Of a stretch of 64,000 nucleotides of DNA, positions 8,384-63,271 are shown piece by piece; position 1 is the first letter of the stretch, and the number at the start of each line of letters is the position of its first letter. This DNA is from Candidatus Marinacidobacterales bacterium. Lineage in GTDB: Bacteria; Acidobacteriota; Vicinamibacteria; Marinacidobacterales; SMYC01. The notes beneath the pieces were generated by a model. The model saw only the letters and a program-made list of their open reading frames with translations. It was not told the DNA's origin and did no database searches. The stretch lies in NCBI GenBank assembly GCA_965224085.1, contig CBDCYI010000004.1, forward strand, positions 1,728,001-1,792,000, read 5' to 3'. The position numbers were made by a program, and so were the translations under genes.

Positions 8384-8411
8384 GCCCCCGAGAGGGGTGG
8401 TCCGCGACGGC

Positions 8412-9182: not shown

Positions 9183-9258
9183 AGGTGCACTTTAGCAGGA
9201 ATCAGCGTTTGACATCCAATATTCGCACGAGGTGGATGGAGACTAACGCGAGCCCTTA

Positions 9259-31506: not shown

Positions 31507-32949
31507 ATTTCGACCCCGTCTTCAGGTGGTTTCTCGGCGTCACGCTCGTCGCTTACGTCGTGGGCCTCTACGCACTCGCGTTTCGCATGCGCGGGCGCAT
31601 CCAGAGCAGCGAGGACTTCATCGTCGCCGGTCGGCGGCTGAGCTTCACGCTCGCGACAGCGACGCTTCTGGGTACATGGTTCGGCGCCGGGACGATTCTC
31701 GCCGCTGCGGACGAAGTTCGCCGCGAAGGATTGCAAAGCGCCGCGCTCGAGCCCTTCGGCGCCGGCTTCTGTCTCATCGTCGCCGCGTTGTTCTTCGCAC
31801 GACCGCTCTGGGAGATGAAACTCCTCACGGTGAGCGATTTTTTTCGCCGTAAGTTCGACAAACGTGCGGAGGTCGTTTCCGCCGCGGTGATGGTGCCGAG
31901 CTATTTTGGCTGGATCGCCGCTCAGTTCGTCGCCTTCGCGGGGATGCTCGATCTGTTCTTCGGCCTGGACATGACTGTGGGTATCGTGCTCGTCGCCGTG
32001 GTGGCCGTCGGCTACACACTCATAGGCGGCATGTGGTCGGTCACTTTGACCGATGCGTTTCAAATCAGCCTCGTCATGATCGGGCTCGTCGCTCTCGCGT
32101 GGACCACGCTCGCGACGCTCGGCGACGGTAGCGTGCTTTCTGGGCTCGTCCGGCTCTGGGCCGACACCCCACCCGAGATGCGCGAGCCCATCCCCATGGG
32201 ATCAATTCAGCTTCTTTTCGAGTGGCTTGCCGTTTTCGCCGTGGGCGCTCTCGGGAACATCCCAGGCCAGGATTTGATGCAGCGCATTTTTTTTGGCGCG
32301 ATGGGCGCGCACCGCGGTGAAGGCCTGCTATGCCGGCGGGTTTCTCTACATCACCTTCGGCCTCATCCCTGTCACCCTCGGGATCGCGGGGCGCATCCTG
32401 ACACCCGACAGCCTGGAGCACGCCATTCTCCCTGCGCTCGCGCTGAGCTTCTTGGAACCGATCCCTGCCGTCTTCTTCACGGTCGTTCTCGCTTCCGCCG
32501 TGCTCTCCACGATCGATAGCGCTATCCTCTCCCCAGCCAGCGTTTTGTCGCAGAACGTTCTCGAATATGTGAACCGCGGCTTCTTCTCTTCTCTGACGTT
32601 GACGCGGATCGCCGTCGTGATCGTGACCATCGCTAGCCTCGGCTTCGCATTTGCCGGCGAGAGCGCTTACACGCTTCTCGAAGACGCTTACGAGCTTCCT
32701 CTAGTCGGTATGTTCGTGCCGCTCGCCATGGGCCTCTACCGTAAGCCGGTTTCGGCGATGCCGGCGATCGCGTCCATGCTCGTCGGGCTCGGGCTCTGGC
32801 TCGTTCACTACTTCGCCGACTGGAGCTATTTCTTCGAGCCGTGGACATCGGGCCTTCCGTTGAAGCCTGAAGCGTCTCTCACGATGACTGCGTTCAGTCT
32901 ACTCGCCTATCTCGTCACCGAGCTCGCCACGAAAGAAAGGCCGACATGA
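31503..32949 (+). pseudogene. Second sodium:solute symporter (choline-transporter-like), frameshifted in a T8 run at about 32287-32294
   Basis: FIVAGRRL, GGMWSVTLTD, GNIPGQDLMQRIF, continuing in another frame with ASAVLSTIDSAIL. Confidence 0.85.
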
Positions 32950-45180: not shown

Positions 45181-45342
45181 CGAACCCAGAGTTCTAGCTC
45201 ATTGTGCGTGCTCGACGCAAATCGTCGATGCTAGCTTTGGTTTTGAGGCAGCCTTGCAGCGAACCATAGCGCGACCCACAGATACTTGACACTAGTAATT
45301 TGGGATTTTGGGTGCGAACATAGACGAACACCCGAAAAACTG

Positions 45343-47286
45343 ATGTCCAAAACTGTCATTCCCGACAAAGTCGGTAGGTACGAACTACGCGGTCTCGTCG
45401 GCGGTGGCGCCATGGGCGTGGTCTATAGCGCCGTCGACCCGGGGCTCGGACGCTCCGTGGCCATCAAGACCATGTCGATCTCTGATTCGCCCCATGAGGC
45501 GGAGCTTCGGAAACGCTTTTTGCAGGAGGCGCAAGCCGCAAGCCAGCTTCAGCACCCGAACATCATCACGGTGCACGAGCTGTTCGAGGAAGGCGATACC
45601 GCTTTTCTCGTGATGGAACTTCTCGAGGGCGCGTCCTTGTCGGCCCTTCTTCGGCGGAAGAAGGTGCTCTCGCTAGCGGAGAAGATCTCTATCATCGACC
45701 AGATAGCAGCCGGTCTGTCCGAAGCTCACGCAAATCGGATCGTCCATCGTGACATGAAGCCTTCCAACGTCTTCGTTGTTCGAAGCGGCGTCGTCAAAGT
45801 TATCGATTTCGGTGTCGCCAAAGTCGGTGAGGGAGAGCTCACGAAAGCGGGCACCGTATTCGGAACGGTCGAATATATGGCTCCGGAGCAAGTCCGTGGA
45901 CAAAGCGTGACGCAGCAAGCCGACATCTTTTCCCTCGGTGTCGTCGCGTACGAGCTCCTGAGTGGCCGCAATCCGTTTCGTGCGGATACGCTCGCCGCGT
46001 CGGTGTTCAAGATCATGTCCGATAACCCGGGCAAGCTGAGCGACGACGCCAATGTTCCTGAAGAAATCGACGCCGTCGTGTTTCGCGCCTTAGCGAAACC
46101 GATGGTCGAGAGGTTCGAATCTCTGCGCGAGCTCCGCGCACATCTGCAAGACGCCGCGGAACAACTCGGGGTCACCCCCAAACCGCCCTTACTCGCGGAT
46201 GAAGATATCGAGATCACCAAGGAACGTGGGGACATTGTGGCGGTATCGGCCACTCCCCGAGTGTCGCAGTGGTCCAACGTCGCCGCGCAGGCGGATCTGC
46301 TCGAACAGACCTATCAGCTAGGCGTCCAAGCCTACGGCAGAGGTGATTATGAGGACTGCGTTTCCAAGATGAGCCAAGTGCTCGACGAAGTGCCCGTCCA
46401 CGCGATGTCGCTGCACTATCTCGCCTCGAGCGAGGAGAGGCTGAGACGCCAGCGTTTGAGCGACGATGCGAGGCAAAAGGCGTCCACGCTTCTGACCGCG
46501 ATGCGCGACGCCCATCGCCAAGGCGACTCGGACCTGGTCACCGAGAAATCCAATGCTTTTCTCTCGCTGGATCCCGAATCCATGGAAGCGCGGTAGTATC
46601 GTCGCAATGCAGAAGCGCGCAAACGGGCCGCAACCGTGGGCGGTTCGCGTCCGCGCGCCGCCGCAGGTCATTCCCAGATGGGAAGCCTAGGAGGGCAAGC
46701 CCGAGGGAGCTTCGGCTACACGTCATCGCCTGGACGCACGATGAGCGCCGCTCAAACACCGCCGGCATTTGCGCCGACTCCAAGTGCTCTTGGCTCGTCC
46801 GCCAACGGAATGTGGATCCTCGCCGGCGTCGCGATCCTCTTCGTAGGTCTTATCGTGGTGTGGCTCGGAAGCTTGGGGAGCCCGGATCTTAGCGTTTCGG
46901 CCAGCCCCGGCCGCGGTCCCAAGGTGCGCGTTTCGCCGTTTGATGGAATGGACGATAGCCAAGCCGTGCAGCTGCAGCTCCAACGACAAGATCCGGAGCC
47001 GGCCCCGACCGCGCCGCCCGCGGGGTTCTCGGTCCAATACGTCATACCGACCAAGATCGAGGTCGGCCGACCCATGACGCTGGGTCTCTTCGGCGACGGT
47101 TTTCCCGAGGACGCCAAAGTTTCTATCGCCGTAGAGGGGGTGGCCATTTTGTCGACCCACGTGCGGAGCCCCGAGCACATCGAAATCCAGATCCAGGCAG
47201 ACCAAGCACACGAGCAGCTCGACATCGTGGTCGAAGACTCCGAAGGCGCTCGGGTCGCGGTCGCTCTCACCGTGCATGAGCGGTAG
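45343..47286 (+). pseudogene. Ser/Thr kinase with TPR-like region, TM segment and C-terminal Ig-like domain; in-frame TAG at 46594-46596
   Basis: VGGGAMGVVY, HRDMKPSN, DFGVAK, YMAPEQ; ORF 46636-47286 is in the same frame (EAR*YRRNAE). Confidence 0.8.
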
Positions 47287-47395
47287 CCAGATGTACCACA
47301 ACCACGCACATCGAGTGCGGTAAATTCACCACGTTACATCATAAGCCACTCGAACAACTATCCCATTTACAACGGGTTGCGACAGAACACTTTCC

Positions 47396-47411
47396 TGGCA
47401 CACGGATTGCT
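47396..47411 (+). promoter_or_regulatory. sigma54 (-24/-12) promoter upstream of wzc
   Basis: TGGCAC-ACGGA-TTGCT is a perfect match to TGGCAC-N5-TTGCW, in an AT-richer intergenic region. Confidence 0.75.
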
Positions 47412-47517
47412 ACACAAGCGAAGCGGGTCCACTTTCGAATTTCATTGGAAATCCAACACACAGCACGTTTTAAGACCACGTCTCTGCCGAGCGTTTTTGA
47501 TTCAGTAGGTTCATGGG

Positions 47518-49817
47518 ATGGAGCTGAAAAAGAGCGAACAGATGTCCAACGCGAATTGGACTCCTCCACCAATGCCGACATCCGAGCCGGAGTCAGCCGA
47601 GTTCCATCCTCCCGAATCGGAGAAGCACCTGAGGGACTATTGGTACGTTATCTTGAAGCGCCGCTGGGTCATCCTCGCGGTTTTCGTTTCGGTCCTGTCC
47701 TACACCGCGGTAAAAGCGCTCATGCGCCAGCCGGTCTATAGCGCGTCCACCGTCCTCCAGATCGATCGCGGCAAGATCAATCTTGTCCAGGACGTGATGG
47801 TTCAGGACTACTGGAGCGGCTACGACGAGTTCTACCCCACGCAGCAGCGCGTTTTGATGAGCCGCAATCTTTCGCGGGGCGTCGTCCGAAGCCTCCGTCT
47901 CTGGGAGCAACCCTATTTCGGAGGCGACAAGACGCACACACCGGACGAGCAAACCGTGGAGGGTCTCGCCGGGCGCGTGGTCGGGATGCTGCAGGTCACG
48001 CAGATTCGGAATACACAGCTCATGGAGCTGAAGTTCACGAGTACGGATCCGCAAGTCGCCGCGGATCTCGCCAATGCGCTCGCACGACAATACATGACGT
48101 TCAGCATGGAAAAAGAGACGACCCTCGCTCGTGACACCGCCGGTTTCATCCGCGAGCAAGTCGAGAAAATACAAGTCGAGATTCAAGAGCGGGAGCAGCT
48201 TCTTCAGGAATACAGCCAGCGCCAAGACCTCATGATGGTCGATGAAAAAGAGCTCCTCGTCATGCGACAGCTCCAAGATCTCAACAGCGCCGTCGCGGTG
48301 GCGCGCACGTCGCGAGCGAACGCGGAAGCCAAATATCGGAGTCTTCGGGCGGCTGACACGCAAATACTACCTGCGGTTCTCGCGAACCCGACCGTCCAGG
48401 GCCTCGTGCAGCAACGCGGCGTGCTCGAAGGCCAAGTCGCCGAGCTCGCCGCCAAGTTCAAGGACGACTGGCCGGATCTGCGCCGCGCCCGCGAAGGGCT
48501 CGCCGACATCAAGAATCGGATCGAAACTGAGCGTAGAGCTTTGACGGTCGACGTCGTGGCGAAGGCCCGGGTGGAGTATCAGGCCGCTGTCAAGCGCGAA
48601 ACCCTCCTGCTCGCGGAAGTCGAAGCTCAGAAGCGAGAAGCTCAGAAGCTCAGTAAGCTCACGACAGATTACAGTCAAATCAAAGCCGGGATTGACAACC
48701 AACGTTCCATGCTGCAGCAGCTGTTACGCAGGCAATCCGAGACGGGTCTGAGACGGGTCTGAGTGCCGAGCTCGGAGCGCGGGAGCCCGTGAACGTCCGC
48801 ATCGTGGAGGCGGCGCTCGTTCCGAAAGCACCCTCCGGCCCGAGCCTTTCGCGAAGCCTATTGCTCGGCAGCGTCGTCGGTATCGCACTTGCCCTCGGAC
48901 TCGCGCTGTTCCTCGACTATTGGGAAACGAGCATCTACACGATCGAGGATCTACGCCGGCAGGTGCCGCTTCCCTATATGGGGATGATCCCTCGACTTAA
49001 TTCCGACACCATTTCGCGCTGGGACGCTCTTGCGGCAGGCGCGATGGCCCCGCACGGCAAGAACATGAATCACACACGCTCGGCACTTGCCTTGTCGCAA
49101 AGCACCAAAATCGCTTCCCGTGCGAAGGAAGACATGTCGCTGATCGCGGAGCGCTTCAAGTTTCTGCGCGGCTCGCTCTTGCTGTCCACGCCCGGCCACC
49201 CGCCACGAACCGTTATCGTAACGGGTCCGGACAAGAACGCTGGCAAAACGTTCGTCGCTTGCAACCTCGCGACCTCGCTTGCCGATCTGGACAAGAAGGT
49301 TCTTTTGATCGACGCAGACCTCCGCAACCCCCAGATCCACAAGGTCTTCCGGTTCAAAAACCGCGTTGGCCTTTCGAGTGTCCTGTCGGGGCAAACGGCG
49401 GTCGAGAAGGGATGCGTCTTTTCGACGATCATTCCGAATCTCTACGTGCTGCTCGCTGGCCCCCCCAGCCCGACTCCCGCCGAACTTCTCGGCTCGAGCA
49501 AGATGGAGGAGACGCTCGAGCAGTGCATGCAGCTTTTCGACTACGTGCTGCTGGACTCGGCGCCTCTCTTACCTGTTTTCGACTCTCACTATCTCACCGT
49601 ACGCGCCGACGCCAACCTCCTCGTCGTCCGGAGCGGACACACTTCGAGAAATGCTGTAAGCCAGAGCCTCGACTTGATTGATCGCGTCGGTGGCAAGGTC
49701 ACGGGGGTCATCTTGAACGACGTGAACCTCGCGGACTACGCTCAGAATTACTATTACAGCTATCACAGCTACGAGTACGGGACTTACGGCGAAGAGCCGG
49801 CGCGAAAGGTCAGTTAA
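47518..49817 (+). pseudogene. wzc: Polysaccharide co-polymerase/tyrosine autokinase, split by an 11-bp tandem duplication at 48739-48760
   Basis: HLRDYWYVILKRRW, coiled coil, Walker A GPDKNAGKT, LLIDADLR, LLDSAP, Tyr cluster YYYSYHSYEYGTY; GAGACGGGTCT x2. Confidence 0.9.
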
Positions 49818-49848
49818 TCGTGCCCCTCACCCGCATCGTTCTCGCCTG

Positions 49849-51033
49849 ATGCCTTCGGTGACGGCCCCCGGGCTCGACAAGCTCACGAGGGCATGCGCCA
49901 AAGAGCTCGCTCAGGGCGCACCTTCCGACTATTTTGTGCGCTCCGAGGTCGAGCGGCTCTCCCCCCTCCTTTATTACGGGTTCGACCGTCTCGGATGGCC
50001 CGACACCGTCCCAGAGGATGAACGTCACCACTTCCGCAAAGCTTACTACGCGAGCGCGGGCCGAAACGTCGAATTGTTGGACGCTCTCGGTAACGCAGCC
50101 GAGGCCCTCTCGGCACGGGATATCCAGACGATCGCAGTGAAAGGCGCGGAGCTCGCGACCAACGTTTATCCGAGCGTCGCACTCCGCCCGATGAGCGATA
50201 TCGACCTCTGTGTGTCGCCCGAGCAGGGCGAAGCTGCGGAGGCTACATTGACGGAGCTCGGATACCGCCCCTATGCGCCGGAAATGACTCCGGGGCTCGC
50301 GCGGAAGACACGGCACGCAAAGTTGTTCATCGGTGGTGCTCGGGACAACATCGCCATCGATCTGCATTGGTCGTTAGTCGGCGGTCTCGGCGACACTCGC
50401 GCACCCCATTACGATTGGCTTCGCGACAATACCGTGAGAAGCGACGCGCCCTACGAGCGGCTTTCGGAGACGGCGCATCTCGCTTATCTGGCCGCACACA
50501 TGAAGCTTCAGCACTACGACGAAGAGATTCCACTCCTGTGGCTCGTCGATTTCACGCTTCTCGCTTCTTCGTCCTCGATGGAGTGGGAGGTGCTCTTCGC
50601 CGATGCGCGCGCTCTTGGGTGGAGCGACGCGCTGGCCGCAACGGCCCGCGATGTGCAACGACGCCTGGGTGCCGATTTGCCCGAGCCGCTCGTGCGGTTC
50701 ACTGACAGCTGGCCGCTGCTGCCGCAGATAGCGGAACTTCATCGGCGGGACGGCCGCGACGAGCCCGAGCGCGTTTGGAACGAGCTCACCACGCTACCCT
50801 GGCACGCACGTTGGGCGCTCCTCTGCGCTCTCGTTCTACCGTCGTTGAGCTACATGCGCTTCCGCTATCCCTCGCTGCCTAGTTGGGCATGGCCGCTCGC
50901 TTATCCGCTTCGATGGGCCCGATTCGTAGCTAAATCTGCAGCGCTCGCTAAGAGGTATGTAGGCCGCGTTGTGCACCGGGAAACACGAACGAAACCGCTT
51001 CTCGCGTCCCCGGATCGCCGCAAAAGCTGGTAG
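49849..51033 (+). CDS. Uncharacterised nucleotidyltransferase (NTP_transf_5-like)
   Basis: AVKGAELA..YP..ALRPMSDIDL, IDLHW, LLWLVD. Confidence 0.88.
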   Translation: MPSVTAPGLDKLTRACAKELAQGAPSDYFVRSEVERLSPLLYYGFDRLGWPDTVPEDERHHFRKAYYASAGRNVELLDALGNAAEALSARDIQTIAVKGAELATNVYPSVALRPMSDIDLCVSPEQGEAAEATLTELGYRPYAPEMTPGLARKTRHAKLFIGGARDNIAIDLHWSLVGGLGDTRAPHYDWLRDNTVRSDAPYERLSETAHLAYLAAHMKLQHYDEEIPLLWLVDFTLLASSSSMEWEVLFADARALGWSDALAATARDVQRRLGADLPEPLVRFTDSWPLLPQIAELHRRDGRDEPERVWNELTTLPWHARWALLCALVLPSLSYMRFRYPSLPSWAWPLAYPLRWARFVAKSAALAKRYVGRVVHRETRTKPLLASPDRRKSW

Positions 51034-51068
51034 AATCTAGGCATACACTAATACATAGGTACAAATGC

Positions 51069-52011
51069 GTGGCTGTGAATTTCGCTGCCTGTAAAACTAC
51101 GCCTTTCGGCGCTCGCTATCTGAAAAACCCAGCCATGTTTCCCCTTGGTTTGGACGGAGAATCGTGGGGAAGCCGCGAGCTATCGCTCGGGGTCTTGGAC
51201 AAGCGGTTTCTCGTATGCGGGCTCAGCGCGGCTCAGGAACATACGATCCGAAGCTTGTGGCCCCGCTTCGTCATCGACGATCCGGACCGCGCGGACGTGG
51301 CGCTGTTCGTGCACCGCGCACCGACGTCCATCTTTATCAAGTTCGACCGCTGGGAGTACACCCTCGATTTCGATTACACGACGAAGTCGCTCTCGATGGC
51401 GGGATTGGATCTCATGGGGCGACTCGAGCTCGTGCCCGAGCTGCGCGCCGCACTTTGGGTGGCAACGGAAGAACACGATCTGTTTCACAGCGCTTTCGAG
51501 AACTTCTTGCGAATCCTCGTCGCCTACGCGGCGCTCGATCTCGGAGGCGGGTTGTTTCACAGTGCTGCCGTCGTGGAGGGCTACTCGGCTTGGCTATTCG
51601 TCGGCCATTCCGGCGCAGGCAAGTCCACCGTCTCCCAACTGGCGCTCGACTCCGGTCGCGCTGTTTTGAGCGATGATTTGAACCCGGTCCTGCCGAATCC
51701 ACGCGGCGGCCTCGACCGTCGTCGGGAGCCCTTTTCTCGGCGACGAAGGCGCCCGCGCGCCGACGCGCCACGCGTTGAACGCCATCTACCGGCTGGAGCA
51801 AGGCGCAAGAGACGGCGTAAGAACGATGGGCGAAGCCGAGACGCTCGCTTCACTCATGGCATCCTCGCCCTATCTCAACCGCGATCCTCACCGGACCGAA
51901 ACGCTGTGCAAAAACCTAGCGACCCTCGCGGGGCGTGTCCCGCAGCGCGTTTTGACTTTTCGGCGCGATGGAACGATCTGGCCCCTCCTCGAACGGAACG
52001 GGGCAAAATAA
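51069..52011 (+). CDS. HprK-related P-loop kinase, with a one-base frameshift near 51712
   Basis: LFHSAAV, GHSGAGKST, LSDD; the shifted frame continues VVGSPFLGD..AIYRLEQG..LTFRRDGTIW to TAA 52011. Confidence 0.8.
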
Positions 52012-52065
52012 TTTGAAGTCAGATATTTAGATCAACGTTTTCTTGCAGTTAAAGGAGCAACTCTG

Positions 52066-52353
52066 ATGATCGACAGGTCGCTTGTTCTCAAGCGTAGGGA
52101 TGACGTTCGGTACCGGATCGTCGGTGATGAGGCGGTTGTGATTCGGCAAAGTGCGGCTGAGGTTCTAGCTCTCAATGACGTGGGGGCGCGGGTGCTCGAG
52201 CTCATCGATGCGGGAGAGACGATGGGCGCTTTGATCGACACGATGGTCGAGGAATACGATGTCGGGCGGGAAGATCTCGCTCGTGACGTCGTGGGGTTCG
52301 TCCAATCGATCCGCGAGGCGGGCATCGTCGAAGGCGTCTCGAACCCGTCGTGA
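52066..52353 (+). CDS. PqqD-family RiPP recognition element (RRE)
   Basis: 95 aa; YRIVGDEAVV..LALNDVGARVLELIDAGET..EEYDV..DVVGFVQSIREAGIV; RBS AAGGAG. Confidence 0.92.
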   Translation: MIDRSLVLKRRDDVRYRIVGDEAVVIRQSAAEVLALNDVGARVLELIDAGETMGALIDTMVEEYDVGREDLARDVVGFVQSIREAGIVEGVSNPS

Positions 52354-53459
52354 GCTACGAGGCAACCGTCGTCCGAGCGTGGCAGGATTTTCATCTGTTT
52401 TCAGCTCTGCTCGAGCTCACTTATCGATGTAACCTCGACTGTTCGTTCTGCTATAACGACCTGGAGCTCGAAGGCGAGCCGCTTCGATTTTCCCAATACG
52501 AGCTTTTGCTCGAGGAGCTTCGCGAGCTCGGCTGTTTGCATCTAGGCCTTTCCGGCGGGGAGCCGTTGGCTCATCCTGATTTTTTTGCGATCGGCAAAAG
52601 AGCTCGCGAGCTCGGCTTCGTGACGCGTATCAAGTCGAATGGCCACGCGCTCGGCGGCGAGATTTTGCGCCGCGTAGAGCGCGAAGTCGATCCCTTCGTC
52701 GTCGAGATAAGTCTTCACGGAGCTATCGCGAGAACCCACGATCGCCAGACGCGCGTCAGCGGGAGCTTCGATCGCCTGATATCGAACCTGGCCGAGATGC
52801 GCGAGCGTCACTTGCGTGTCAAGCTCAAATGCGCGTTGACCCGGTGGAACGAGAGCGAGATCGAAGAGATGTTTGCGATCGCCGACAGATTCGAGATGCC
52901 GCTCGTGATCGACCCAGAGGTCACACCCCGCGACAATGGAGACCTCGAACCGTTGCAGCTCACCGCGTCGCCCGAAGGCTTGAAGCATCTCGTCGCGGTG
53001 CAGTCACGACGTGCGCTCGCGGCGCGCGCCGAGATCGCACGCGAAGGAGAGGCCGACGCCCCGGACTCAGACAGGCATTGTGGGGCTGGAACGGCAGGCA
53101 TCGCCGTGGACCCCTACGGAAACGTCTATCCCTGCGTCCAATGGCGGCGTCCGATTGGAAACGTTCACCAGAGCCGCCTCGCCGATATCTGGAGTGACAA
53201 CGCGCGACTCGATGAAATCCGGCATTTGACGGTCGAAGCGAAGTCGATGCTCGGTGATAGGGAGGAGGCGCCGTTGCTCGCTTTTTGTCCTGGTATCGCG
53301 GAAAGTCTGACCGGCGATCCTCTCGTCGTGCCCGAAGCGGCCTCGAAACGGGCGGCAATACTCGCGGAAGCGGTTCTCCCTCTACATCCATCTAGCCGTC
53401 TCAGAACGTCTCTCGCTGTCCCTCCCGATCCCACCGTTTCGATAAAATCAACTACATAG
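52350..53459 (+). CDS. Radical SAM enzyme with SPASM/Twitch-type C-terminal domain (true C-terminus may be near 53390)
   Basis: ELTYRCNLDCSFC, SGGEP, SNG, CGAG..VDPYGNVYPC, FCPG; GTGA overlap with pqqD. Confidence 0.92.
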   Translation: MSYEATVVRAWQDFHLFSALLELTYRCNLDCSFCYNDLELEGEPLRFSQYELLLEELRELGCLHLGLSGGEPLAHPDFFAIGKRARELGFVTRIKSNGHALGGEILRRVEREVDPFVVEISLHGAIARTHDRQTRVSGSFDRLISNLAEMRERHLRVKLKCALTRWNESEIEEMFAIADRFEMPLVIDPEVTPRDNGDLEPLQLTASPEGLKHLVAVQSRRALAARAEIAREGEADAPDSDRHCGAGTAGIAVDPYGNVYPCVQWRRPIGNVHQSRLADIWSDNARLDEIRHLTVEAKSMLGDREEAPLLAFCPGIAESLTGDPLVVPEAASKRAAILAEAVLPLHPSSRLRTSLAVPPDPTVSIKSTT

Positions 53460-53499
53460 AGATATCGCCGTTCGCGAGCCGCAGCCTCGCAAGAAGAGG

Positions 53500-53690
53500 T
53501 CATGCTCTGTCCGGCGACCGGAGCTTCTCCAGGAATCTGCCCATGTGAGGGTGGCTACGGTCGAGTGGGACTGCGTCCTTGTGAAACCATCGTACGCTCC
53601 GAAACTCGGATTCATCGAACACTAGGTTCTGCCTACGGTCACCCTTCATGACGTACCAGAGGCTCACACCGGTATGACCCGCCAACAGAT
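53500..53690 (-). pseudogene. C-terminal fragment of a NUDIX-like hydrolase
   Basis: AGHTGVSLWYVMKGDR..FDESEFRSVRWF..HPHMGRFLEKL; no N-terminus. Confidence 0.5.
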
Positions 53691-54020
53691 ATCTGCTACG
53701 ATGAGCCACTTTTGCCCGCCCGAAACTCGGCTTCGAAGGAGCATGTGGGCGCAATTCGAGCGTGACGTTGAGCGAGGTGCTCCGACGAGGCCGGGTCGTC
53801 ACGTGGTTTTCCGGATATTCACGAGGAATCGAAGCTACAGGTTTCGTGCGTGGTGGTGCAGCCGACGCGAAGGATGACGACGAGCCGACCTTTCTTGCAC
53901 TCAGGGCGGACGTCGGATTCGGTATCGGTGCCTACGGAGTATGGGGCTGAGGGGAGCGTTCTATACTCGCGGAGTGGTGCTTCCTCTACATCCGGTACAG
54001 CGCAGCTGATGATTAGGCCC

Positions 54021-54200
54021 TTACGATCTCTGGGCGAGGGGACAGGTGCCTACCGTGGCTTTGGCGGGAGGCGACGGGGTGCACAACGCGGCCATGGCTT
54101 CGAGGGGTTCGCGGTAGAGTATCTCGGGACGGCGGTAGGCCTTTTTCTTGGCCGTCCCGTTCCCCCGCTCCTTCTTGTTGCGACTGTTGTCTTGCTTCAT
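54021..54200 (-). CDS. Candidate RiPP precursor peptide, 59 aa: MKQDNSRNKKERGNGTAKKKAYRRPEILYREPLEAMAALCTPSPPAKATVGTCPLAQRS
   Basis: Translated by hand (not in the ORF track, whose shortest entries are 60 aa); AGGTGG RBS 4 nt before ATG; KKKAYRRPEI leader motif; Cys40/Cys53; next to PqqD and rSAM genes. Confidence 0.8.
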   Translation of the reverse strand: MKQDNSRNKKERGNGTAKKKAYRRPEILYREPLEAMAALCTPSPPAKATVGTCPLAQRS

Positions 54201-54257
54201 GGATCCACCTGTTTTTCTAGTTTGATAACACGCTCTTTCCGGACATCGTCAGGACAG

Positions 54258-55428
54258 TCAGTGGGCTAGCATCATGAAGAAGTTCACCATTAGCCGATTC
54301 TTCTCGAAGAGGACGACGTTCGAGCGGCGTTCCAGATACTCCGTAGTGACGCCGACGTCCAACCCCCGGCGTATCCTACAAGTGAGCGAGAGACGATAAG
54401 TGATGTGCTCGTCCATGATTCGCCTATGGAGCTGCCACCGAAAAGAGCCGCCGAAGCGTTGCTCGATGAAGTAGGAGTTCTTCACTGAGAACGGACGTCA
54501 CCGCGTCGCGGGAATAGATTCCCGCCAGCCGATGCCCCCCACTCGCAACGTACGTGACGTCCACGGAACCGATGAGGCCCGCATATTCGACACGGTTCGC
54601 ATCCACGGGGATGAGTCGGCGAAAACCGAGAAGAAGTTGCCCGGAGAGGCCTGCGGAAGGGCTCAAGGGTACGATGGAGCCCGACGACAATGTGGGAGAA
54701 AAATCAAAGCCGGCACGCATCCCGTAAGAATCACTATCCCGGGTCGGGTCGTCGATATCGAGCTTCTCGTAGAAGATGTCGGCGAGGGCGTTCGTTTTGG
54801 CGCTCACCCGGCGTGAGAGATTCATGGATACGGAGTCTCGGACGAAGTTGAGACGATCGAGGATGGTGCTGTCGTCGTTCGGTGTCTGGATGATCCTCGA
54901 TCGCGTTTGCTCGTAGCGTGCGCTGAGTTGGTGACGCCATCCGAGTGCTAGAGTCATCGCCGCGTCGAACTGGTTGGTGCGCATCTCGACAGGAAAGTCG
55001 AACTCCGTGCTGGGCCGGCGGATGTCGTCCCGAAACTCGTTGTTGATTTGAAGTAGATAGCGGCGCCCACCCCAGCCTCCGCCGAGACGGGTGATGTCGA
55101 AGATGCGGCGCAGGTCGGCGTTGTTCTTGTAGTAAACGAAGTCGACTTCTTGGAACATATCGAGAAACGCATTCGAGCCCATGGGCACAGCGAGCCGTAT
55201 CCCGGGTCCGAGTAGCGCGGCGATGTCGGACTGCGCCGCCGGCGTCGACAGAGCATTCGAGTCGTATCCACCGGAGAATCGAATGCTCGGGGTGGCGTAG
55301 AAAGGACCGAGCTCGAAGAATCCGCTTCGCACGTCAGTAAGGCGCTCTTCGATGAGGTCCACGGATTGGGCGGCGGCCGGAGCGGCGACGAGCAGCGCTA
55401 AGAGCGTGAGACGAAAGCTCCACATCAC
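54258..55428 (-). CDS. EPS-locus outer-membrane beta-barrel protein, frameshifted near 54485
   Basis: Signal peptide; GPFYATPSIRFSGGYDSN; alternating beta-strand pattern; continues NSYFIEQRFGG in another frame. Confidence 0.7.
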
Positions 55429-56585
55429 GCGGCGCCCAGAATGCGACCCACGGTCGTATTTTGAAATACCGCGTCAATCAAACCGCGGTGCCAGTCGAAA
55501 TTCGCCTTCTCCCGAATCAAGCTCGCGAGCCCTTCGCGCCGGGCTAGAGACATGAGCCGCTCGATGCCCCAGTCGCTCATGAGCTTGAAGCTCCGCCGGA
55601 GCTTGAGCCCAGTCTCGATCTCATCCTGCAGAAGATCCCGCCACCGCTTCTCGTACGCGCCGAGGGTCGAGCTGTCGAGACGATCTCGCTCGAGCCCAAA
55701 GGCGATAACGTCGGCCGCGATTTCTCCCGTCAGCATGCCGTAGTAAATGCCGCCGCAAGTCGTCGTCTTGATATGGCCGGCCGCCTCGCCGACGACGACG
55801 ACCCGATCCGCATAGCTCTTCGACAAGAATCCAAGAGGAAGGACACTCGTGCGGGTCTCGCCGGCCAGCCCGTTGATGTCGATGCGCTCCGCAATGTCGG
55901 GCCGCGACAAGAAACGCTTGAGCACGCGAGGTCCGTCGCGGCGACACAGAAGGCCGACTTTCGATCGTTGCCGTCCCAAGGGCACGATCCACGCGAAACC
56001 CTCCGGTGCCCATTTGTGGCCCAAATAGACTTCCACGTGCGATGCAGGAAGCTCCAGCTCGGTTTGGACACCCAAGAGCTTGGCAGGAATGTCGTCGAAG
56101 CCGAGCTTGCTCAGAAGCGGCATGCCGGCTCCCGTCGCCACGACCACCACGCGGCACCTCAGAGCCTGTGGCTCCAAGCCCGCGCCTACGGACACGGTCA
56201 CAGCGACGCCTCCAAATACGTTGCGGATGTCGGTGACTCGATGCCCCAACAAAACGGTCGCTCCAGCTTCGCATGCCACGACGCCGAGCTCCGCATCGAA
56301 CTCGCTCCGATCGACGACGTGGGCGAGCGGGGTGTCGGTTCGAAACTCCCAGCGCACGCCTCTCGGTGAGACGAACTCCACGCTGTCAAGGCTGTGGCGT
56401 ACGAGACGCGACGACAGATCGAAACGTCCGAACGCTTCCAAGCCGATAATGCCGCTGCAGTTGACGGGGCGTCCAATCTGGACGTGCTCTTCGAGAACGC
56501 CGACATGGAATCCGGCGCGCGCTAGGCTCGCGGCGGCCGTCAACCCGGCCGGCCCCGCGCCGACGATGAGCACATCAAATTCATC
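55425..56585 (-). CDS. Geranylgeranyl-reductase-family FAD-dependent oxidoreductase (start uncertain)
   Basis: DVLIVGAGPAG, PVNCSG, DRSEFD, FAWIVP, VGEAAGHIKTTTCGGIYY. Confidence 0.85.
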   Translation of the reverse strand, partial: DEFDVLIVGAGPAGLTAAASLARAGFHVGVLEEHVQIGRPVNCSGIIGLEAFGRFDLSSRLVRHSLDSVEFVSPRGVRWEFRTDTPLAHVVDRSEFDAELGVVACEAGATVLLGHRVTDIRNVFGGVAVTVSVGAGLEPQALRCRVVVVATGAGMPLLSKLGFDDIPAKLLGVQTELELPASHVEVYLGHKWAPEGFAWIVPLGRQRSKVGLLCRRDGPRVLKRFLSRPDIAERIDINGLAGETRTSVLPLGFLSKSYADRVVVVGEAAGHIKTTTCGGIYYGMLTGEIAADVIAFGLERDRLDSSTLGAYEKRWRDLLQDEIETGLKLRRSFKLMSDWGIERLMSLARREGLASLIREKANFDWHRGLIDAVFQNTTVGRILGAA

Positions 56586-56593
56586 TTTAGCGG

Positions 56594-57214
56594 TCAGAGC
56601 TTCTTCTCCCTTACTTCCCACTTGCCGCGGAAGGTAATCCAAAACGACAGGAAAATGAGTTTGAGATCGAGCCAGAACGATCGATGGTCGACGTAGAGGC
56701 GATCGAAGCGAAACTTCCGCCGGCGTGAAATGTCACGCCGTGCGTAAATCTGCGCGATCCCGGTGAGCCCGGGAACGACCGCATGCCGCTCGCCATAACC
56801 TGGGATATCCGAAAGAGCCACGTTGCCGCCGCCTCCGGTCTCGGCTTCGTGAGTCGCGAGCGCTCGAGGGCCGACAAAAGACATGTCTCCTCGAAAGATG
56901 TTCCAAAGCTGGGGCAGCTCATCCATCGCCGTCTTGCGGAGCACTTGGCCTATCGGGGTCACGCGCGGGTCGTGTTCTTGAGCCTGCACGGGACCTTCTG
57001 CGCCATCTGCGTTTAGGATCATCGATCGAAATTTGAAACTCCGGAAAGGCTTGCCGGCCTTGCCCACCCGATCCTGGGCGAAGAAAACCGGGCCACCATC
57101 GCCGAGCTTGATGGCAAGCGCGATGAGTCCACCGAGGGGCGTCGCGAGCACAAGCCCGGTTGCTGAAAGCGCGACATCAAGGCCTCGCTTCGCAAGCGGC
57201 GTGGGCTCGAGCAC
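56594..57214 (-). CDS. Priming sugar-phosphate transferase (bacterial sugar transferase family)
   Basis: KRGLD, FKFRSM, DPRVT, DELPQLWNIFRGDMSFVGPR, PGLTGIAQ. Confidence 0.93.
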   Translation of the reverse strand: MLEPTPLAKRGLDVALSATGLVLATPLGGLIALAIKLGDGGPVFFAQDRVGKAGKPFRSFKFRSMILNADGAEGPVQAQEHDPRVTPIGQVLRKTAMDELPQLWNIFRGDMSFVGPRALATHEAETGGGGNVALSDIPGYGERHAVVPGLTGIAQIYARRDISRRRKFRFDRLYVDHRSFWLDLKLIFLSFWITFRGKWEVREKKL

Positions 57215-58419
57215 CGGGCTCGAGAAGCTCGGCTTCGAATAGGTCGTGATAGGCTCGAGCTTGCTTCCGGCGGTCGAACTGAACACCGGCTCTTCGAGCG
57301 TGGCCGCCGAGCTTGCGGGTGAGTTCTCGATCGCGGTGAAGCCGCGTGATCTCATCGACCATTCCTCCAACGTCGCCCGGGGCAACGACCGCCCCGCAAT
57401 CATATTCGCGGGCAATCGAGGCGACTTCTGTTTCCGGCTCCACCGCCGCGACGTAAGCGCGGCCCGCTGCCAGAATTCCGTAGAGCTTGCTGGGCACGAT
57501 GTAACCCGCAAGCCCGGCTTTCAACGAAACGATGAACAAGTCCGCCGAGGCATAGGACTCCGTCATCCGATCTCTCGGCTGGTACGGAAGAAAGAGAACG
57601 TTTTTCAGCTCGCGGCAACGCACGTCATCCACGAGAGCCTGTCTTCGGACGCCATCGCCAACGAGTAGAAAAAGGATCTCCTCGCGTGATGCGAGTTGCG
57701 CGGCTGCTTCGACCACCATGTCGAGATTCTGGGAAAGCCCGAGATTGCCCGACGACGAATCGGTCCTCGAGCCCGTGCTCTCGAGAGAAGGCGTTGTCCT
57801 TTTCGCCCGGCGTCACGATCGAGGTATCTGCCCAGTTGTGGATGACGGTGATTTTCTCTGGATCGGCGTTCTTGCCGTCGACGAGCCGGCGCTTCATGCA
57901 CTCACCGAGTGCGACGATGCGGTCGGCCCTACGCACGAGAAAGACGTTCACGCGCTGCAACACGGCGTTGACCGTCTCGCTTCGAAAATCTTCGAGAAGG
58001 CTCGCAACTTCGGGAAACACGTCCTGGCACAAGAAGACGAAGCGCGCACCCATCCGTTTGGCCGTCATCCACGCGACGAGCCCGATAATCGGCGGATCGG
58101 TCAGAGCCACGACAACGTCTGCCGGCGGGAGACGGAAGCTCGCCCACGTCGCCGCAAGAAAATATGACACGTAGTTGACGAATCGCCCCAAGAAGCCTCT
58201 CGGGGCGAGCCGCGTGCTCTTGGCGCGAAGGATCGTGACGCCTTCGTGCGTTTCAGAAACGCTGAGACCACGAGGAGCGGCCGCGCCCGGTGCCGGGCCG
58301 GCGACCACTGTAACCTCACAATCATAGTCTCGCACGAGGTCTTGGGTGAGCTCGCTGAGAAGCTGCCCCGTCGCGCCGAGGTCAGGGTAGTATGAGCGGT
58401 TGAAGAACACGACACGCAT
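57177..58419 (-). CDS. GT4 glycosyltransferase, frameshifted by a small deletion near 57750
   Basis: YYPDLGATGQL, TDPP, QDVFPE, HNWAD, GNLGLSQNL, VPSKLYGILAAG. Confidence 0.85.
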
Positions 58420-58422
58420 CAA

Positions 58423-59406
58423 TCAGCGCCTCGCCTGCTCCGAAACCACGTTCTTCACGAGCTGGGCTTCCCGAAACCAAGCGATGGTCCTCGAAAGGCC
58501 TTCGCGAAACCCGGTCGTCGCGCGGAACCCGAAGGTCGTCGCGGCCCGATCGACGCTCAGGCAGCGCCGCGGCTGCCCGTTGGGCTTCGTCCTGTCCCAG
58601 AGAATCTCGCCGGCAAAGCCAATGAACTCGGCGATGAGCGTCGCCAGATCCTTGATTGAGATTTCGAAACCGGCGCCGAGATTGACCGGCTCGGCGCTGT
58701 CATAGGCCATCGTCGCCGCGACCACGCCTCGTGCGCAGTCCTCGACGAAAAGAAATTCTCGCGTGGGCGATCCGTCGCCCCAACAGACGAACTCGCGGTC
58801 GCCGCGCTCAATGGCTTCCTGGCATTTGAGCACGAGCGCTGGGATCACATGGGAGCTCGCGGGATCGAAATTGTCCCACGGTCCATAGAGATTCACCGGC
58901 AACAGATGAATCGCGTTCATCCCGTATTGAGCCCGATAAGCTTGCCCTTGCACGAGGAGCATTTTCTTCGCGAGCCCGTAGGGCGCATTCGTTTCTTCTG
59001 GATAGCCGTCCCAGAGGTCGTCTTCTGAGAAGGGCACTCTGCTGTGCTTGGGGTAGGAGCAAATCGTACCGACGCTTACGAACTTCTCGACGCCGTTTCG
59101 GCGCGCATATTCGATGAGCTGAACGCCCATGATGAGATTCTCGTAGAAAAAGCGGCCAGGATTCTCCCGATTCGCGCCGATGCCCCCGACGACCGCGGCA
59201 AGATGGATCACGATGTCGGGCGCATGGACGCGATAGAGCCTTGCAACCGTCTCTTCCGCGGTAAGGTCATATTCCGCGGAACGTACGATAACGACGTCCC
59301 GCGCACCTTGCGCGATGAGCTCTTCGTAGACGTGGCGGCCGAGAAACCCACCCCCGCCAGTGAGCACGATCCGTTTCGAGCCGAGATCGATTGGCGGTTT
59401 CTTCAT
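58423..59406 (-). CDS. fcl: GDP-L-fucose synthase
   Basis: [59 protein letters not shown]. Confidence 0.93.
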
Positions 59407-61209
59407 GACGCTTGTCTCGTTTCCGCGACTGCGGGGGCCGGCACGACTTTCCGCTTGTCAAAGCGCTTCTCGAGGACATGGCTTCCGAGAACGAGCACGT
59501 CCATATCCGTTCGCAAAAAACAGTCGATTGCCTGTCGTGGCTCGTGCACGATGGGCTCGTTCTCGTTGAACGACGTATTCAGGAGCACCGGAACGCCGGT
59601 ACGCGTTTCGAAAGCCTCGAGGAGCCGATGGTAGATTGGGTTTTGCTCCCGACTGACCGTCTGCAATCGCCCAGAGCCATCCACATGAGTTACCGCCGGT
59701 AACACGTCACGCTTGTCTTTCGCAACCGGGTAGACTTGAAGCATGAACGGATCGGGGAGGGCGCCTTCGAAGTAATCGTCCAGCCGCTCTTCGAGGATCG
59801 ACGGTGCAAAGGGCCGAAATTTCTCACGACGCTTGATCTTCGCGTTCAAGATATTGCGCATGTCGGACCGTCTGGGATCCGCGAGGATGCTGCGATTGCC
59901 CAACGCTCGCGCTCCCCATTCCATGCGGCCTTGAAACCAGCCGACGACCTTCCCCGCCGCCAACTTCTCCGCGGTCCAATCGGTCAGCGCGTGAAGCTCG
60001 TGCATCTGCTCGGCCGCGCACGCGCGCTCGAGCTCACCGTCGCGTCCCCGCAGGGCCGCGAGCACGCTGGCATCGTCGAAGGCCGTACCCCAGTAGCCGT
60101 GCTCCATGGTGAACTTGCGGGGCTTTTTCAGAACTTGATGCCACACGAAATAGGCGGCGCCGAGCGCAGTACCGTTATTCCGCGGCCGCGGGCTGGATGA
60201 AAACGTTCTCGAACGGGGTCTCGGCGCGAAGCTTCCCATTGGCAACGCTGTTCATGGCACATCCACCAGCGAGGCAGAGCCGTTTCGATCCGGTACGCGC
60301 GTGCAGCTCTCTCAGAACGTGAAAGGCTGATTTTTCGAAGACTTTTTGGAGCGACGCGGCAATCGCGTGATGCCGCGTTGTCACCTCTTCGTTCGGCGCG
60401 CGAGCGGGGCCGAGCAGCTTTTCGAGCTCTTCGGTAAAAACCTTATCGATGGTGGGCGCCCCGTCACCCCAAGTCATCACCACCTTTTCGGAGCCGTGGC
60501 GGAAATAGCGCATGACGAGTGAAACCTGTCCGTTCTTCTCGAGCCGGACTAGCTTCGAGATCGCCTCTGCGTATTCGGCCTCGCCATAGGGTGCGAGCCC
60601 CATGACCTTGTACTCGTCTCCGTAGCTCGGAAAGCCGAGGAACTGCGTGAACGCAAGATAGAGAAGTCCCAGGGAATGCGGGAAGTAGGTGCGGGCGTGA
60701 ACGTCCAAGCTGCTCCCCGTTCCGTGCGCCATCGACGTACTCACAAAATCACCGAAGCCGTCGATGGCGCAGACGGCCGCCTCCTCGAAAGGCGAGACGT
60801 AGAACGCGCTCGCCAAGTGTGCCGGGTGGTGCTCTACATCGTGAAAGCGCGCTCGAACGTGGGACGGCGAAAGAGAAAGCGTGTAGGCGACCTCCTCGAC
60901 GACGCCTCGCACTTTGGACTGGTTGCGCAAACGGTCCCAAAGAAACGAAACGTTCGGCTTACGGCAAAGCGCGTAGAGAAACTTCCGGCTTATGTGAGCT
61001 TTCGGATCCCTCGAGACGGCGAAGTAGTCGATCTCTTTTCCGTTGATGCCCGCGATCGCGAGGCAGGCGCGGATGGCCTCCGAAGGAAACCCAGCACAGT
61101 GTTTCACGCGGCGAATGCGCTCCTCTTCGACCGCGGCGATGAGCCGCCCATACGAGATCAACACGGCGCTCGCGTCGCCGTGATAGGCGTTGATGCCGAG
61201 AATGTTCAT
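59403..61209 (-). CDS. NodU/CmcH-family carbamoyltransferase, frameshifted near 60178
   Basis: [65 protein letters not shown]. Confidence 0.92.
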
Positions 61210-61408: not shown

Positions 61409-63271
61409 GTGAGTCAATTTTTTTTGTGGCTGCCGTTTTCGCCTGGGCAGCAGGTACGACGGACCATCTCCGAGATGGGACGCGCAAGCCGCTCGCAGCC
61501 AGACGAGCTCGAAGACCATTGCCAGCTGCCGGACCTCGGCGTCGGAACGCTCGAGCGGGACAGCGCACCGTCAGCACAGCCCGCGACGCTCGCCGGACAC
61601 CATTTATGGTTCTTCGGCGAAGCCTATGACGGCCATGGGCTCGGCAACGTTGAGGCGGTTGAGGCGGTCGAGGCCTTCGACTTCCGGCGAAAGCTCCTCG
61701 AGCTCGTCCTCGATCAAGGACCCGACGTCTTGCGAGCGCTGGATGGCGCGTATGTCGTCGCCCTTTGGCGAGCAGAGAGCACAACGCTCAGAGTCGTGAA
61801 CGATCGTTACGGCACCCTCCCTCTCTACTGGTCCAACAACGGCGACGGCTTCGCCATGGCCAGCACCGTCCGAGCCATATTGATGGCCCCGGGAGTCGAG
61901 CCTATGCCGGACATCCAGGCGCTTCGTGAAGCCGTGACTTTCGGAGGCTACCGCCTCGGAGAGCGTACCAACGTCGAAAACGTGAAAATGCTTTACGGAG
62001 GGACCGAGCTCTCTGTGCGCGGCAACACGGTCACAAAGAAGCGCTACTGGAGCTATGCGGCGATCGAAGAACGCGACTCTGGACTCGACGTCGACGTGCT
62101 GATCGAGCAAGCAAGCGAGCTCTGGACCCGAGCGATCAGGCGTCGCTTGCCGCGAAACGGGCGATCGGGGCAGACCTTGAGCGGCGGCCTCGATAGCCGC
62201 GCCATCCTCGCCGAAGCGGCGCCTTCGTGTCCTGAATGGGTCGCGGTGAGCTACGGCCTTCCGAATAGCGATGACGTCCAGATCGCGAAACGCGCTGCCG
62301 AAGCTTCCGGCGTAGCGTGGGTCTACCACGATCCTTATATGCGCGAGCCGCACTGGCTCGAATCCCGCACGAGCTTCGTTCAACAGACGGACGGGCTCAT
62401 CGACCTGACGGATCTGATGCACGTCGCTTCCGTCCACGCACAGGCCCAACAACTCGACGTGCATTTCAGCGGTTATATCGGAGACGCCGTGTGCGGCCCC
62501 ACCTTCACCGATGTCGAAAACGCTTTGGACCTCAAGAGCGCCCTTCCCTTTTACGGGACGCGTCTCGGGATGGACGATGTCGACGCCGAGCGCCGGATCG
62601 AGGAGATCGTCGCAGGACTTTCCGGCGCTCCGCCTCGTTTCGCGCTCTTCGAGCACAAGATCCCACAATCGACGAATCGATGGGTCGACGCGTGGCGGCC
62701 ATGGCTCGCGGTACGGCGGCCGTTTCTCGATTACGACCTATTCGATTTCTGGCAAGGCTTGCCGGTCACGCTTCGCCGTGAAGGTCGCCTATACGAACGC
62801 TGGCTGACGCACCGCTTTCCGGAGCTCTTCCGAACGATCCCGAACCAGAAAGACATGGTCCCCGTTCTCAGCTCACCACTGCGTCGCCAGATCGTTCGAA
62901 GCGTTCGCTTTGCGACACGCAAAGTGCTCGGAGTGGTGAATCTGAAGACACGCTCGCGCAGCTATCACGATGAGCACGGGCACTGGTCCCAGCCAAAGAA
63001 TCGGAGCCGGATCTAAGAAGCGATTCTTCGCCCGGAATCGGTGTCTTGCGACGTCTTCGGGCGCAACACCGTCCGAGCGTTTCTCACACATTGGTTCGAG
63101 ACGAGCTTGAACCCTACCCAAGTGATCGGTGCCTTATACGTCTTCGAGACCTATCATCGCGACCTCGCGAGTCATCTTGGAGAAAGTGCGCAGAAACAGC
63201 ACGAACAAGCTCCGATCACGATGCTCGAGACAGCGCCGCCAAGAACCGCTCGCGAAAACGGGCCGCCGTAA
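61409..63271 (+). pseudogene. Asparagine synthetase-like amidotransferase with in-frame TAA at 63014-63016
   Basis: LDGAY, NDRYGTLPLY, LSGGLDSR, RRPFLDYDL; ORF 63041-63271 is in the same frame. Confidence 0.8.

Follow-up and report, generated by a model that had tools for sequence, protein, structure and literature searches.

A candidate peptide-maturation cassette with an HPr-kinase-like protein, a nucleotidyltransferase and a radical SAM enzyme in an exopolysaccharide locus of Acidobacteriota

A cassette of genes resembling a peptide-tailoring pathway was found in a stretch of 64,000 nucleotides (hereafter the window) from contig CBDCYI010000004.1 of a Candidatus Marinacidobacterales bacterium. 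It encodes a PF14907 nucleotidyltransferase (NTase), a frameshifted kinase predicted to have the HPr-kinase/phosphoenolpyruvate carboxykinase (PEPCK) fold, a PqqD-type peptide-recognition protein (recognition element, RRE), a radical S-adenosylmethionine (SAM)/SPASM peptide maturase (rSAM) and a convergently transcribed candidate precursor that ends in serine. The NTase, the kinase and the Ser-ended precursor had been named by the first-pass annotation of this DNA, which also specified an rSAM in place of the lasso enzymes, and all of these were found at the locus. We consider it an even prospect that the cassette is a ribosomal-peptide maturation unit built into an exopolysaccharide locus, where the kinase and then the NTase would act on the terminal serine of the precursor.

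In the proposed pathway, the PqqD protein would bind the 59-residue precursor through the Y-x-x-P motif of its leader, as the presence of the motif suggests, and the rSAM would alter the Cys-containing core. The kinase would phosphorylate the C-terminal serine in the way that PadeK, ThcoK and PsmK do on lasso precursors and, in this lineage, the adjacent NTase might add a sugar or a nucleotide to the phosphate, for which PsmN is the nearest precedent. Phosphorylation of the terminal serine by the kinase is a balanced proposition, which we put forward because of the homology of the enzyme, its retained catalytic residues, its co-occurrence with the precursor and the invariance of the serine. 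Decoration of the phosphate by the NTase is a tentative suggestion, and cross-linking of the Cys-containing core by the rSAM is also the more weakly indicated part of the scheme.

Precursor, kinase and nucleotidyltransferase families

The precursor was confirmed to end in serine (...CPLAQRS) and a good ribosome-binding site, AGGTGG, is found 5 nt before its ATG. This candidate had been associated with positions 49849..52011; it is present and Ser-ended as described, but it lies outside that interval (Table 1). Its recognisable features are a [Y/W]xxP leader, two invariant Cys residues, one near-invariant Lys and the C-terminal Ser, and no NCBIfam model was observed to match it. Terminal serine is present in ten of ten precursors taken from the window and from nine related loci. 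A search profile built from these ten sequences matched 1102 proteins at E <= 0.01, where serine was the last residue in all 120 of the matches listed. In a library with one representative per 50%-identity cluster, the same profile matched 496 clusters and the last residue among the best 150 of these was Ser in 145, Thr in 3, Arg in 1 and Ile in 1. The match ending in Ile is a 475-residue repeat protein and is probably false. The precursor was also found in 40 of 41 non-redundant loci, with a terminal serine in all 40; the sets of 120, 150 and 40 sequences overlap and their counts are not to be summed. The conservation of this serine among homologues, by which the first-pass annotation had proposed that its idea be checked, is borne out by these counts.

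The residues ahead of the terminal serine were observed to vary (ISS, IAS, QRS, QKS, LSS, FS, GS and others). Column conservation was read from an alignment of 108 rows picked for typical length. The leader motif has Tyr in 102 rows and Trp in 6, Pro is present in 108 of 108 and the extended form YxxPx[IV] can be recognised. Further conserved columns are L-E, Ala, the two Cys, Lys and the last Ser. No internal column of this alignment reaches 80% Ser/Thr, and the terminal serine appears to be the only conserved hydroxyl residue of the precursor family. Furthermore, the stretch past a conserved EAMAA, which is the presumed core, contains no Asp or Glu.

The gene order of the window is repeated in eight further genomes of the same family, and the core formed by the peptide, rSAM, PqqD and kinase genes was also found in Acidobacteriota and Myxococcota records. 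The grouping of these genes is more than chance. The kinase is present in 34 of the 41 loci and five of the seven loci without it end at a contig edge, which leaves 34 of 36 loci with room for the gene. Co-occurrence was also measured in an even set of 401 genomes of the phylum, including one flagged as unpublished (G209), at thresholds of E <= 1e-5 for the precursor and E <= 1e-20 for the kinase. The precursor occurs in 44 of the 401 genomes and a kinase-family match in 116; all 44 genomes with a precursor have such a match compared with 72 of the 357 others, where related genomes are not independent of one another.

For the fold and profile comparisons, an intact orthologue from a same-genus genome, 88% identical to the kinase of the window, stood in for it. 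Its AlphaFold2 model (predicted local distance difference test, pLDDT, 93.2) was matched by Foldseek to PEPCK with E 8.6e-7 and to the L. casei HprK/P structure 1kkl_B with E 3.5e-4 and a TM-score of 0.52 (target), and the sequence gave weak matches to solved structures (PEPCK, E about 0.005; HprK/P, E 0.023). The model is consistent with an HPr-kinase/PEPCK-like P-loop fold. The closest ESM Atlas clusters are named ScmC or HprK-related kinase A (score 0.98), and the two matches found among plasmid sequences were weak and uninformative. Among 28 kinase sequences the catalytic His, Lys and first Asp are present in all 28, while the second Asp is found in 22 and replaced by Glu in 6. A review describes the His-Lys-Asp-Asp motif as essential in lasso kinases. 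Alignment of the kinase profile with the lasso kinase of Paenibacillus cellulosilyticus (L081:9484-10431; hhalign, 96.8%, E 2.2e-10) extended over 115 columns at 28% identity with the His, GAGKST and DD residues in register. This alignment shows the kinase to be a true homologue of a lasso-cluster kinase, where the enzyme compared is that of L081 and not PadeK, PsmK or BsfK themselves. A complex prediction, made with alignments for the kinase and precursor of one relative, gave a score of 0.14 (mark 0.32) and is not used as evidence.

The NTase scored 156 bits against PF14907 (cut-off 31.2) and its Asp-x-Asp motif (SDIDL) was observed in 10 of 10 relatives. Its hhalign comparison with the NTase of the L081 lasso cluster (98.6%, E 5.5e-16) likewise shows true homology to the PF14907 enzyme of lasso clusters; the likeness to PsmN is drawn through this PF14907-type lasso NTase, PsmN's own membership of PF14907 lying outside the comparison. 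In PsmN itself, D134 and D136 are needed for activity and the protein is called an uncharacterised nucleoside triphosphate (NTP) transferase in its paper (PMC6993621, PMC9266682). The NTase lies on the strand of the kinase in 16 of the 22 loci that extend at least 6 kb upstream of the kinase, and it adjoins the kinase in all seven family-level relatives that carry it. The distant NTases of other lineages were missed by tblastn with the NTase of the window and recovered by the profile.

Both the rSAM and the PqqD protein belong to their broad families (Table 1), and no NCBIfam model attains its cut-off for either of them. The lasso PqqD and the pyrroloquinoline quinone (PQQ) PqqD models match the PqqD protein below cut-off. 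The best NCBIfam matches of the rSAM include the mycofactocin and PQQ maturases, all far below their cut-offs. Orthologues of the rSAM with 55-91% identity were found in 10 related genomes, one of which (G027) is likewise flagged as unpublished; statements on individual loci draw on neither G027 nor G209.

Layout of the locus and its broken reading frames

The window has a G+C content of 56-63% and belongs to a genome of 6.9 Mb in 12 contigs. The genes of interest form an operon-like row on the plus strand, on which a minus-strand row converges that runs from the glycosylphosphotransferase through the reductase-family and beta-barrel genes to the precursor (Table 1). In the window's family, these two intervening genes separate the glycosylphosphotransferase from the precursor. 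The NTase directly follows wzc as had been claimed, with a gap of 31 nt between the C-terminal half of wzc and the NTase start, and the first 4 nt of the rSAM gene coincide with the end of the PqqD gene. Beyond both rows, and up to 8.5 kb past the window end, lie glycosyltransferases, a GDP-sugar epimerase, a carbamoyltransferase, Asn-synthase-like genes, a Wza-type exporter and Wzy_C. With glycosyltransferase, epimerase, Wza-type and Wzy_C neighbours, the cassette is therefore part of a Wzx/Wzy-type exopolysaccharide locus.

Table 1. Genes of the cassette and its immediate surroundings (positions within the window).
Feature	Position	Strand	Basis or remark
Ser/Thr kinase	45286-46596	+	first gene of operon-like plus-strand row
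216-aa protein, matches no family	between Ser/Thr kinase and wzc	+	
wzc N-terminal (Wzz/chain-length) part	47518..48762	+	PF02706 and TIGR03017/TIGR01005 matches
wzc C-terminal tyrosine autokinase part, Tyr-rich tail	48789..49817	+	TIGR01007 E 2.1e-45, above cut-off
PF14907 nucleotidyltransferase (NTase, PsmN/LppN-like), 394 aa	49849..51033	+	PF14907 NTP_transf_5 E 1.5e-45
Predicted ScmC-type HPr-kinase/PEPCK-fold P-loop kinase, frameshifted	51069..52014	+	fold and profile matches
PqqD-type peptide-recognition protein (RRE)	52066..52353	+	PF05402 E 2.4e-14
Radical SAM/SPASM peptide maturase (rSAM)	52350..53459	+	PF04055 E 7.9e-17, PF13186 E 2.1e-8
Candidate precursor, 59 aa	54021..54200	-	convergent open reading frame; family conservation
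Beta-barrel (BBP2_2) gene	54424-55428	-	upstream of precursor, same strand
Geranylgeranyl-reductase-family gene	55425-56642	-	upstream of precursor, same strand
Polyprenyl glycosylphosphotransferase	56594-57511	-	upstream of precursor, same strand

The reading frame of the kinase changes after ...LSDDLNPVLPNPRGGLD. By DNA alignment, the frameshift is one extra C at 51716/51717, where the window has GACC and two relatives have GAC. A break at 51696-51699, which would be a four-letter step, was considered and rejected: the frame is open there, but the alignment with relatives places the break at 51716/51717. The Walker A motif GHSGAGKST and the LSDD motif precede the break, and the His-Lys-Asp-Asp residues all lie before the frameshift. 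In relatives, the intact kinase is one open reading frame (ORF) of about 300-320 residues. Both halves were found in one ORF in 33 of the 35 relatives that were judged, or 29 of 31 when six doubly retrieved loci are counted once; the ORF is cut by a contig end in four loci, and three loci with a match to one half were excluded from judging. The exceptions are L037, which is frameshifted too, and L062, whose contig ends inside the gene. In wzc, GAGACGGGTCT stands twice in tandem at 48739-48760; this 11-bp duplication, seen against two relatives, splits the gene, which is a single ORF of 763-765 residues in relatives.

A slip of assembly or sequencing as the cause of the two breaks was rejected. 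Contigs from sequencing runs of three studies are identical to the window at both sites, and the contig of a fourth run, which carries several base differences, lacks the 11 bases of wzc and keeps the extra C of the kinase; the comparison is of contigs and not raw reads, and the source of the window may itself be among the near-identical runs. Both breaks belong to the organism and are not slips of the window's assembly, and the break in the kinase is more widely shared than that in wzc. The wzc break is polymorphic among close strains because one run's contig is without the 11 bases, the loss of which would restore the frame. With both genes frameshifted, the kinase is most likely inactive in the strain of the window, so that the phosphorylating step is most likely lost; polysaccharide export has probably gone as well, which probably leaves this strain without a working pathway.

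Other genes of the window were also observed to be broken or to look so. A sodium:solute symporter-like gene (31503-32949, named from its translation only), a glycosyltransferase of family GT4 (57177-58422) and a carbamoyltransferase (59403-61209) all look split into overlapping ORFs in different frames. This brings the broken genes in the last 34 kb of the window to five, two of which were checked against relatives, and four of the five lie in the polysaccharide locus. They could reflect loss of the capsule pathway. In the closest relative, a same-genus genome (L031 in G003), the NTase (frameshifted), kinase, PqqD and rSAM (91% identical) genes are kept, other genes follow the rSAM and no precursor was found in its single contig of 10.2 Mb. 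The rSAM is split in L036, L037 (with a 3-kb insertion), L038 and L039. The loss of the precursor in L031 and the split rSAM genes could be due to decay or to long-read errors.

No lasso cyclase, no B2 peptidase and no PF13471 match was found in the window's cassette. The only Asn-synthase-like gene inside the window (61409-63016; weak PF00733 match, E 1.5e-11) lies among the sugar genes 7 kb from the cassette, and a second, stronger one lies just past the window end. Lasso cyclases belong to the same superfamily; the gene at 61409-63016 was considered as a cyclase and not taken as one because a B2 peptidase is missing and the presumed core has no Asp or Glu. Wzy_C was considered as a peptide O-glycosyl ligase, since it flanks the kinase in other lineages, and was rejected. 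In the window it lies 17 kb off beside a Wza-type export gene and is more simply explained as a polysaccharide polymerase.

Related gene sets were also noticed elsewhere. The set of kinase and NTase (with PqqD) recurs on contig 5 of the source genome and on S. meliloti pSymB. On contig 5 (L080, 6215-8310, minus strand) it is an rSAM-less trio with a weak match to the kinase family (E 8e-4), in which the PqqD domain is fused to a Cys-rich C-terminal tail (171 residues). No separate precursor was seen at this trio, and the Cys-rich tail might itself be the substrate. Three records from Holophagales/Thermoanaerobaculia have, next to the NTase, a second kinase resembling HprK-related kinase A (L051, 4301-6615; L063, 12293-14262; L071, 14253-17020, where there is also a second PqqD), which gives two kinases per one precursor; these second kinases score 60-64 bits against HprK-related kinase A, below cut-off. 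In addition, a tblastn search of plasmids with the NTase led to L081, a plasmid record of Paenibacillus cellulosilyticus, where 5785-11230 holds a complete paeninodin-type lasso cluster that is unannotated in the plasmid collection. It comprises a PF14907 NTase, an Asn-synthase-like cyclase, a precursor ending in ...TVTIS, an HPr-kinase-like gene, a PqqD and a transglutaminase-like B2 peptidase.

Weighing of the proposed pathway

Several observations weigh against phosphorylation of the terminal serine followed by the action of the NTase. The description of the kinase as HPr-kinase-like, made by the first-pass annotation, holds at the level of the superfamily by fold and profile, but not at that of a specific family: the enzyme is distant from every curated model, with NCBIfam scores of 19-40 bits for ScmC (cut-off 125) and scores below 200 for HprK-related kinases A and B, and no match in the Pfam copy scanned, including to PF27840, the Pfam family of ScmC. 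The phosphorylation site is not readable from homology because HPr-kinase-like peptide kinases show two known site preferences. PadeK, ThcoK, SyanK and PsmK (poly)phosphorylate the C-terminal Ser of lasso precursors (PMC6993621, PMC9266682), while core Ser3 is reported as the target of BsfK, which is helped by an RRE, and of LppK (Popov et al. 2026, PMC13381572). Counting from the leader Tyr22, the first invariant Cys of the precursor (Cys40) comes 19th, which is the offset of the phospho-Ser3 in the leader motif of the linear peptides, and this may be a hint that the kinase acts close to the boundary of leader and core. The locus L052 (18 kb) has a Ser-ended precursor, rSAM and PqqD without a kinase, and L067 has the precursor alone. 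The frame of the kinase is broken in the contigs of all four runs compared, from three studies. As for the NTase, it is absent from the other 6 of the 22 loci that reach far enough upstream (6 kb or more), and PF14907 occurs in 242 of the 401 phylum genomes, that is in 37 of the 44 with a precursor and in 205 of the 357 without. PsmN is described as required for one or two hexoses on phospho-Ser while its own reaction is left open (PMC6993621, PMC9266682), and the deletion of LppN is reported to have had no effect in a heterologous host (PMC13381572).

The abundance of PF14907 relative to the precursor and the loci from which it is missing would both fit an NTase that is unrelated to the peptide, a polysaccharide-locus enzyme for sugar activation or decoration, for example, which only happens to lie beside the cassette in this family. 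Outside the window's family the NTase also lies 0.5-5.7 kb from the kinase, with Wzy_C or tetratricopeptide repeat (TPR) genes intervening. We find this reading somewhat doubtful since the kinase and PF14907 (with PqqD) occur without sugar genes on contig 5 and on pSymB, the same two enzymes are also found in lasso and linear-peptide clusters, and the NTase is paired with the second kinases of L051, L063 and L071, with a second PqqD in the last of these. Present in 16 of the 22 loci, the NTase is an accessory part of the cassette system.

The terminal serine may instead be kept for another enzyme, such as the rSAM acting at the C-terminus in the manner of the mycofactocin maturase, or for leader or tail processing or export, while the kinase has a different target, which could be the region where leader and core meet, the site used by LppK and BsfK, or some compound of the polysaccharide pathway that is not a peptide. 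The position of Cys40 and the Ser3 preference of BsfK and LppK would suit the former, L052 retains its serine with no kinase nearby, and the best fold matches of the kinase are PEP carboxykinases, which are small-molecule enzymes. Furthermore, the mycofactocin and PQQ maturases, which are among the best sub-threshold matches of the rSAM, act at or near the C-terminal part of their peptides. We nevertheless regard action of the kinase elsewhere as unlikely. A junction-directed kinase would find no conserved internal Ser or Thr in the precursor, the kinase is found together with the precursor and PqqD, and not with sugar genes, over two phyla and differing neighbourhoods, and all its characterised relatives in the papers found are RRE-aided peptide kinases.

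Attachment of the exopolysaccharide or its repeat unit to the phosphoserine through a Ser-O-phosphodiester-sugar bond, with the NTase or else the co-transcribed polyprenyl glycosylphosphotransferase as the linking enzyme, so that the peptide primes, anchors or caps the glycan, is quite improbable: the cassette does lie in polysaccharide loci throughout, with wzc adjoining the NTase in the window and seven relatives, a glycosylphosphotransferase preceding the precursor on the same strand in 25 of 39 loci and within 1 kb in 10 (L047-L066 and others), Wzy_C genes beside the kinase in other lineages, and published precedents in the PsmN-dependent hexose on phospho-Ser, which blocks phosphatase (PMC6993621, PMC9266682), and in the phosphorylated peptides of Bacilli, both paeninodin-like and linear, which are likewise reported in capsule loci and left unexplained there (PMC13381572), but the evidence for such a bond is confined to gene neighbourhood, the NTase is missing from the six loci mentioned, 14 of the 39 loci have no glycosylphosphotransferase on that side (some owing to contig ends), and the papers found name no bacterial peptide-primed polysaccharide of this type.

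Comparison with known systems

Action of the kinase, and possibly of the NTase, on the terminal serine would place the cassette beside known phosphorylated peptides. If, against expectation, the peptide were not a free natural product but a ribosomally made primer or anchor for the exopolysaccharide, the resulting Ser-O-phosphodiester conjugate of peptide and glycan would explain the kinase- and NTase-tailored peptides within capsule loci of Bacilli. Phosphorylation of ribosomal peptides by HPr-kinase-like enzymes has been described for lasso peptides and, in 2026, for linear peptides of Bacillota; here the same kit of kinase, NTase and RRE comes together with a radical SAM/SPASM enzyme. With 1102 matches in one library, 496 clusters in another and 44 of 401 phylum genomes, the peptide family is large. 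It extends to Myxococcota, and it offers a second, independent place in which to ask what role such peptides have for capsules or biofilms.

The phosphorylated lasso systems resemble the cassette in their HPr-kinase-like kinase with a His-Lys-Asp-Asp motif, PF14907-type NTase, discrete PqqD/RRE, [Y/W]xxP leader and precursor with a conserved C-terminal Ser. The background on which the first-pass annotation drew, namely the phosphorylation of this serine and the sugar added through PsmN, agrees with what the two papers on these systems report (PMC6993621, PMC9266682). In contrast to them, the window's cassette has no macrolactam cyclase or B2 peptidase and its presumed core has no Asp or Glu for a ring, whereas a radical SAM/SPASM enzyme and two invariant Cys are found instead. 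The kinase of the window is also of the ScmC type, and the lasso systems occur in Bacillota and Proteobacteria while the window's family occurs in Acidobacteriota and Myxococcota.

The linear polyphosphorylated peptides (LPP) of Bacillota are encoded by lppA-K-B-S-D-N embedded in capsule loci, where the core set is described as a kinase, an RRE, an archaeal-type signal-peptidase-like leader peptidase, an MsbA-like exporter and an NTP transferase, and the biological role is left open in the paper (PMC13381572). They share with the cassette the use of a kinase, RRE and NTP transferase without a lasso cyclase, the YxxP leader and the location in polysaccharide loci. A signal-peptidase-like gene beside the kinase is a further likeness, as S24/archaeal-type signal-peptidase-like ORFs adjoin the kinase in the related loci L048, L049, L050 and L064. 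The reported LPP leader motif is YxxPxVLxHQxIxFETxxS, with Ser3 as the phospho-acceptor (PMC13381572), while the equivalent (19th) position in the window's family is an invariant Cys. Furthermore, the ORFs scanned at 45286-57511 include no signal-peptidase-like gene and no gene for an MsbA-like or other ATP-binding cassette (ABC) exporter. By word search, the term radical SAM occurs nowhere in the main text of that paper, and Acidobacteriota signal-peptidase/RRE pairs occur in it only as rows of a supplementary table (PMC13381572).

The SynChlorMet system (SCM; TIGR04248 ScmD, TIGR04249 ScmC, TIGR04250/04251 ScmE/ScmF) was compared through the names of its models. It likewise combines an HprK-related, ScmC-type protein with PqqD and radical SAM/SPASM proteins. 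However, there is one rSAM here and not two, the match to ScmE/ScmF is 61-67 bits against a cut-off of 400, ScmD is not among the seven NCBIfam matches of the PqqD protein, and the model names convey neither an NTase nor a family of Ser-ended precursors. The HPr-rel-A type set, which has no known precursor or function, consists of kinase A (TIGR04352) and a PqqD (TIGR04353), together with what we take to be a PF14907 NTase. The kinase-PqqD-NTase trio on contig 5 of the source genome and the sets beside the cassette in L051, L063 and L071 are similar to it, but the kinases there reach only 60-64 bits against TIGR04352, whose cut-off is 200, and the kinase of the window fits TIGR04352 worse than ScmC. 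Our literature searches found no description of a system in which an rSAM, a kinase and an NTase accompany a Ser-ended peptide of this kind. Taken together, these comparisons suggest that the phosphorylation kit of lasso peptides and LPP has been joined to a radical SAM enzyme in the polysaccharide loci of another phylum.

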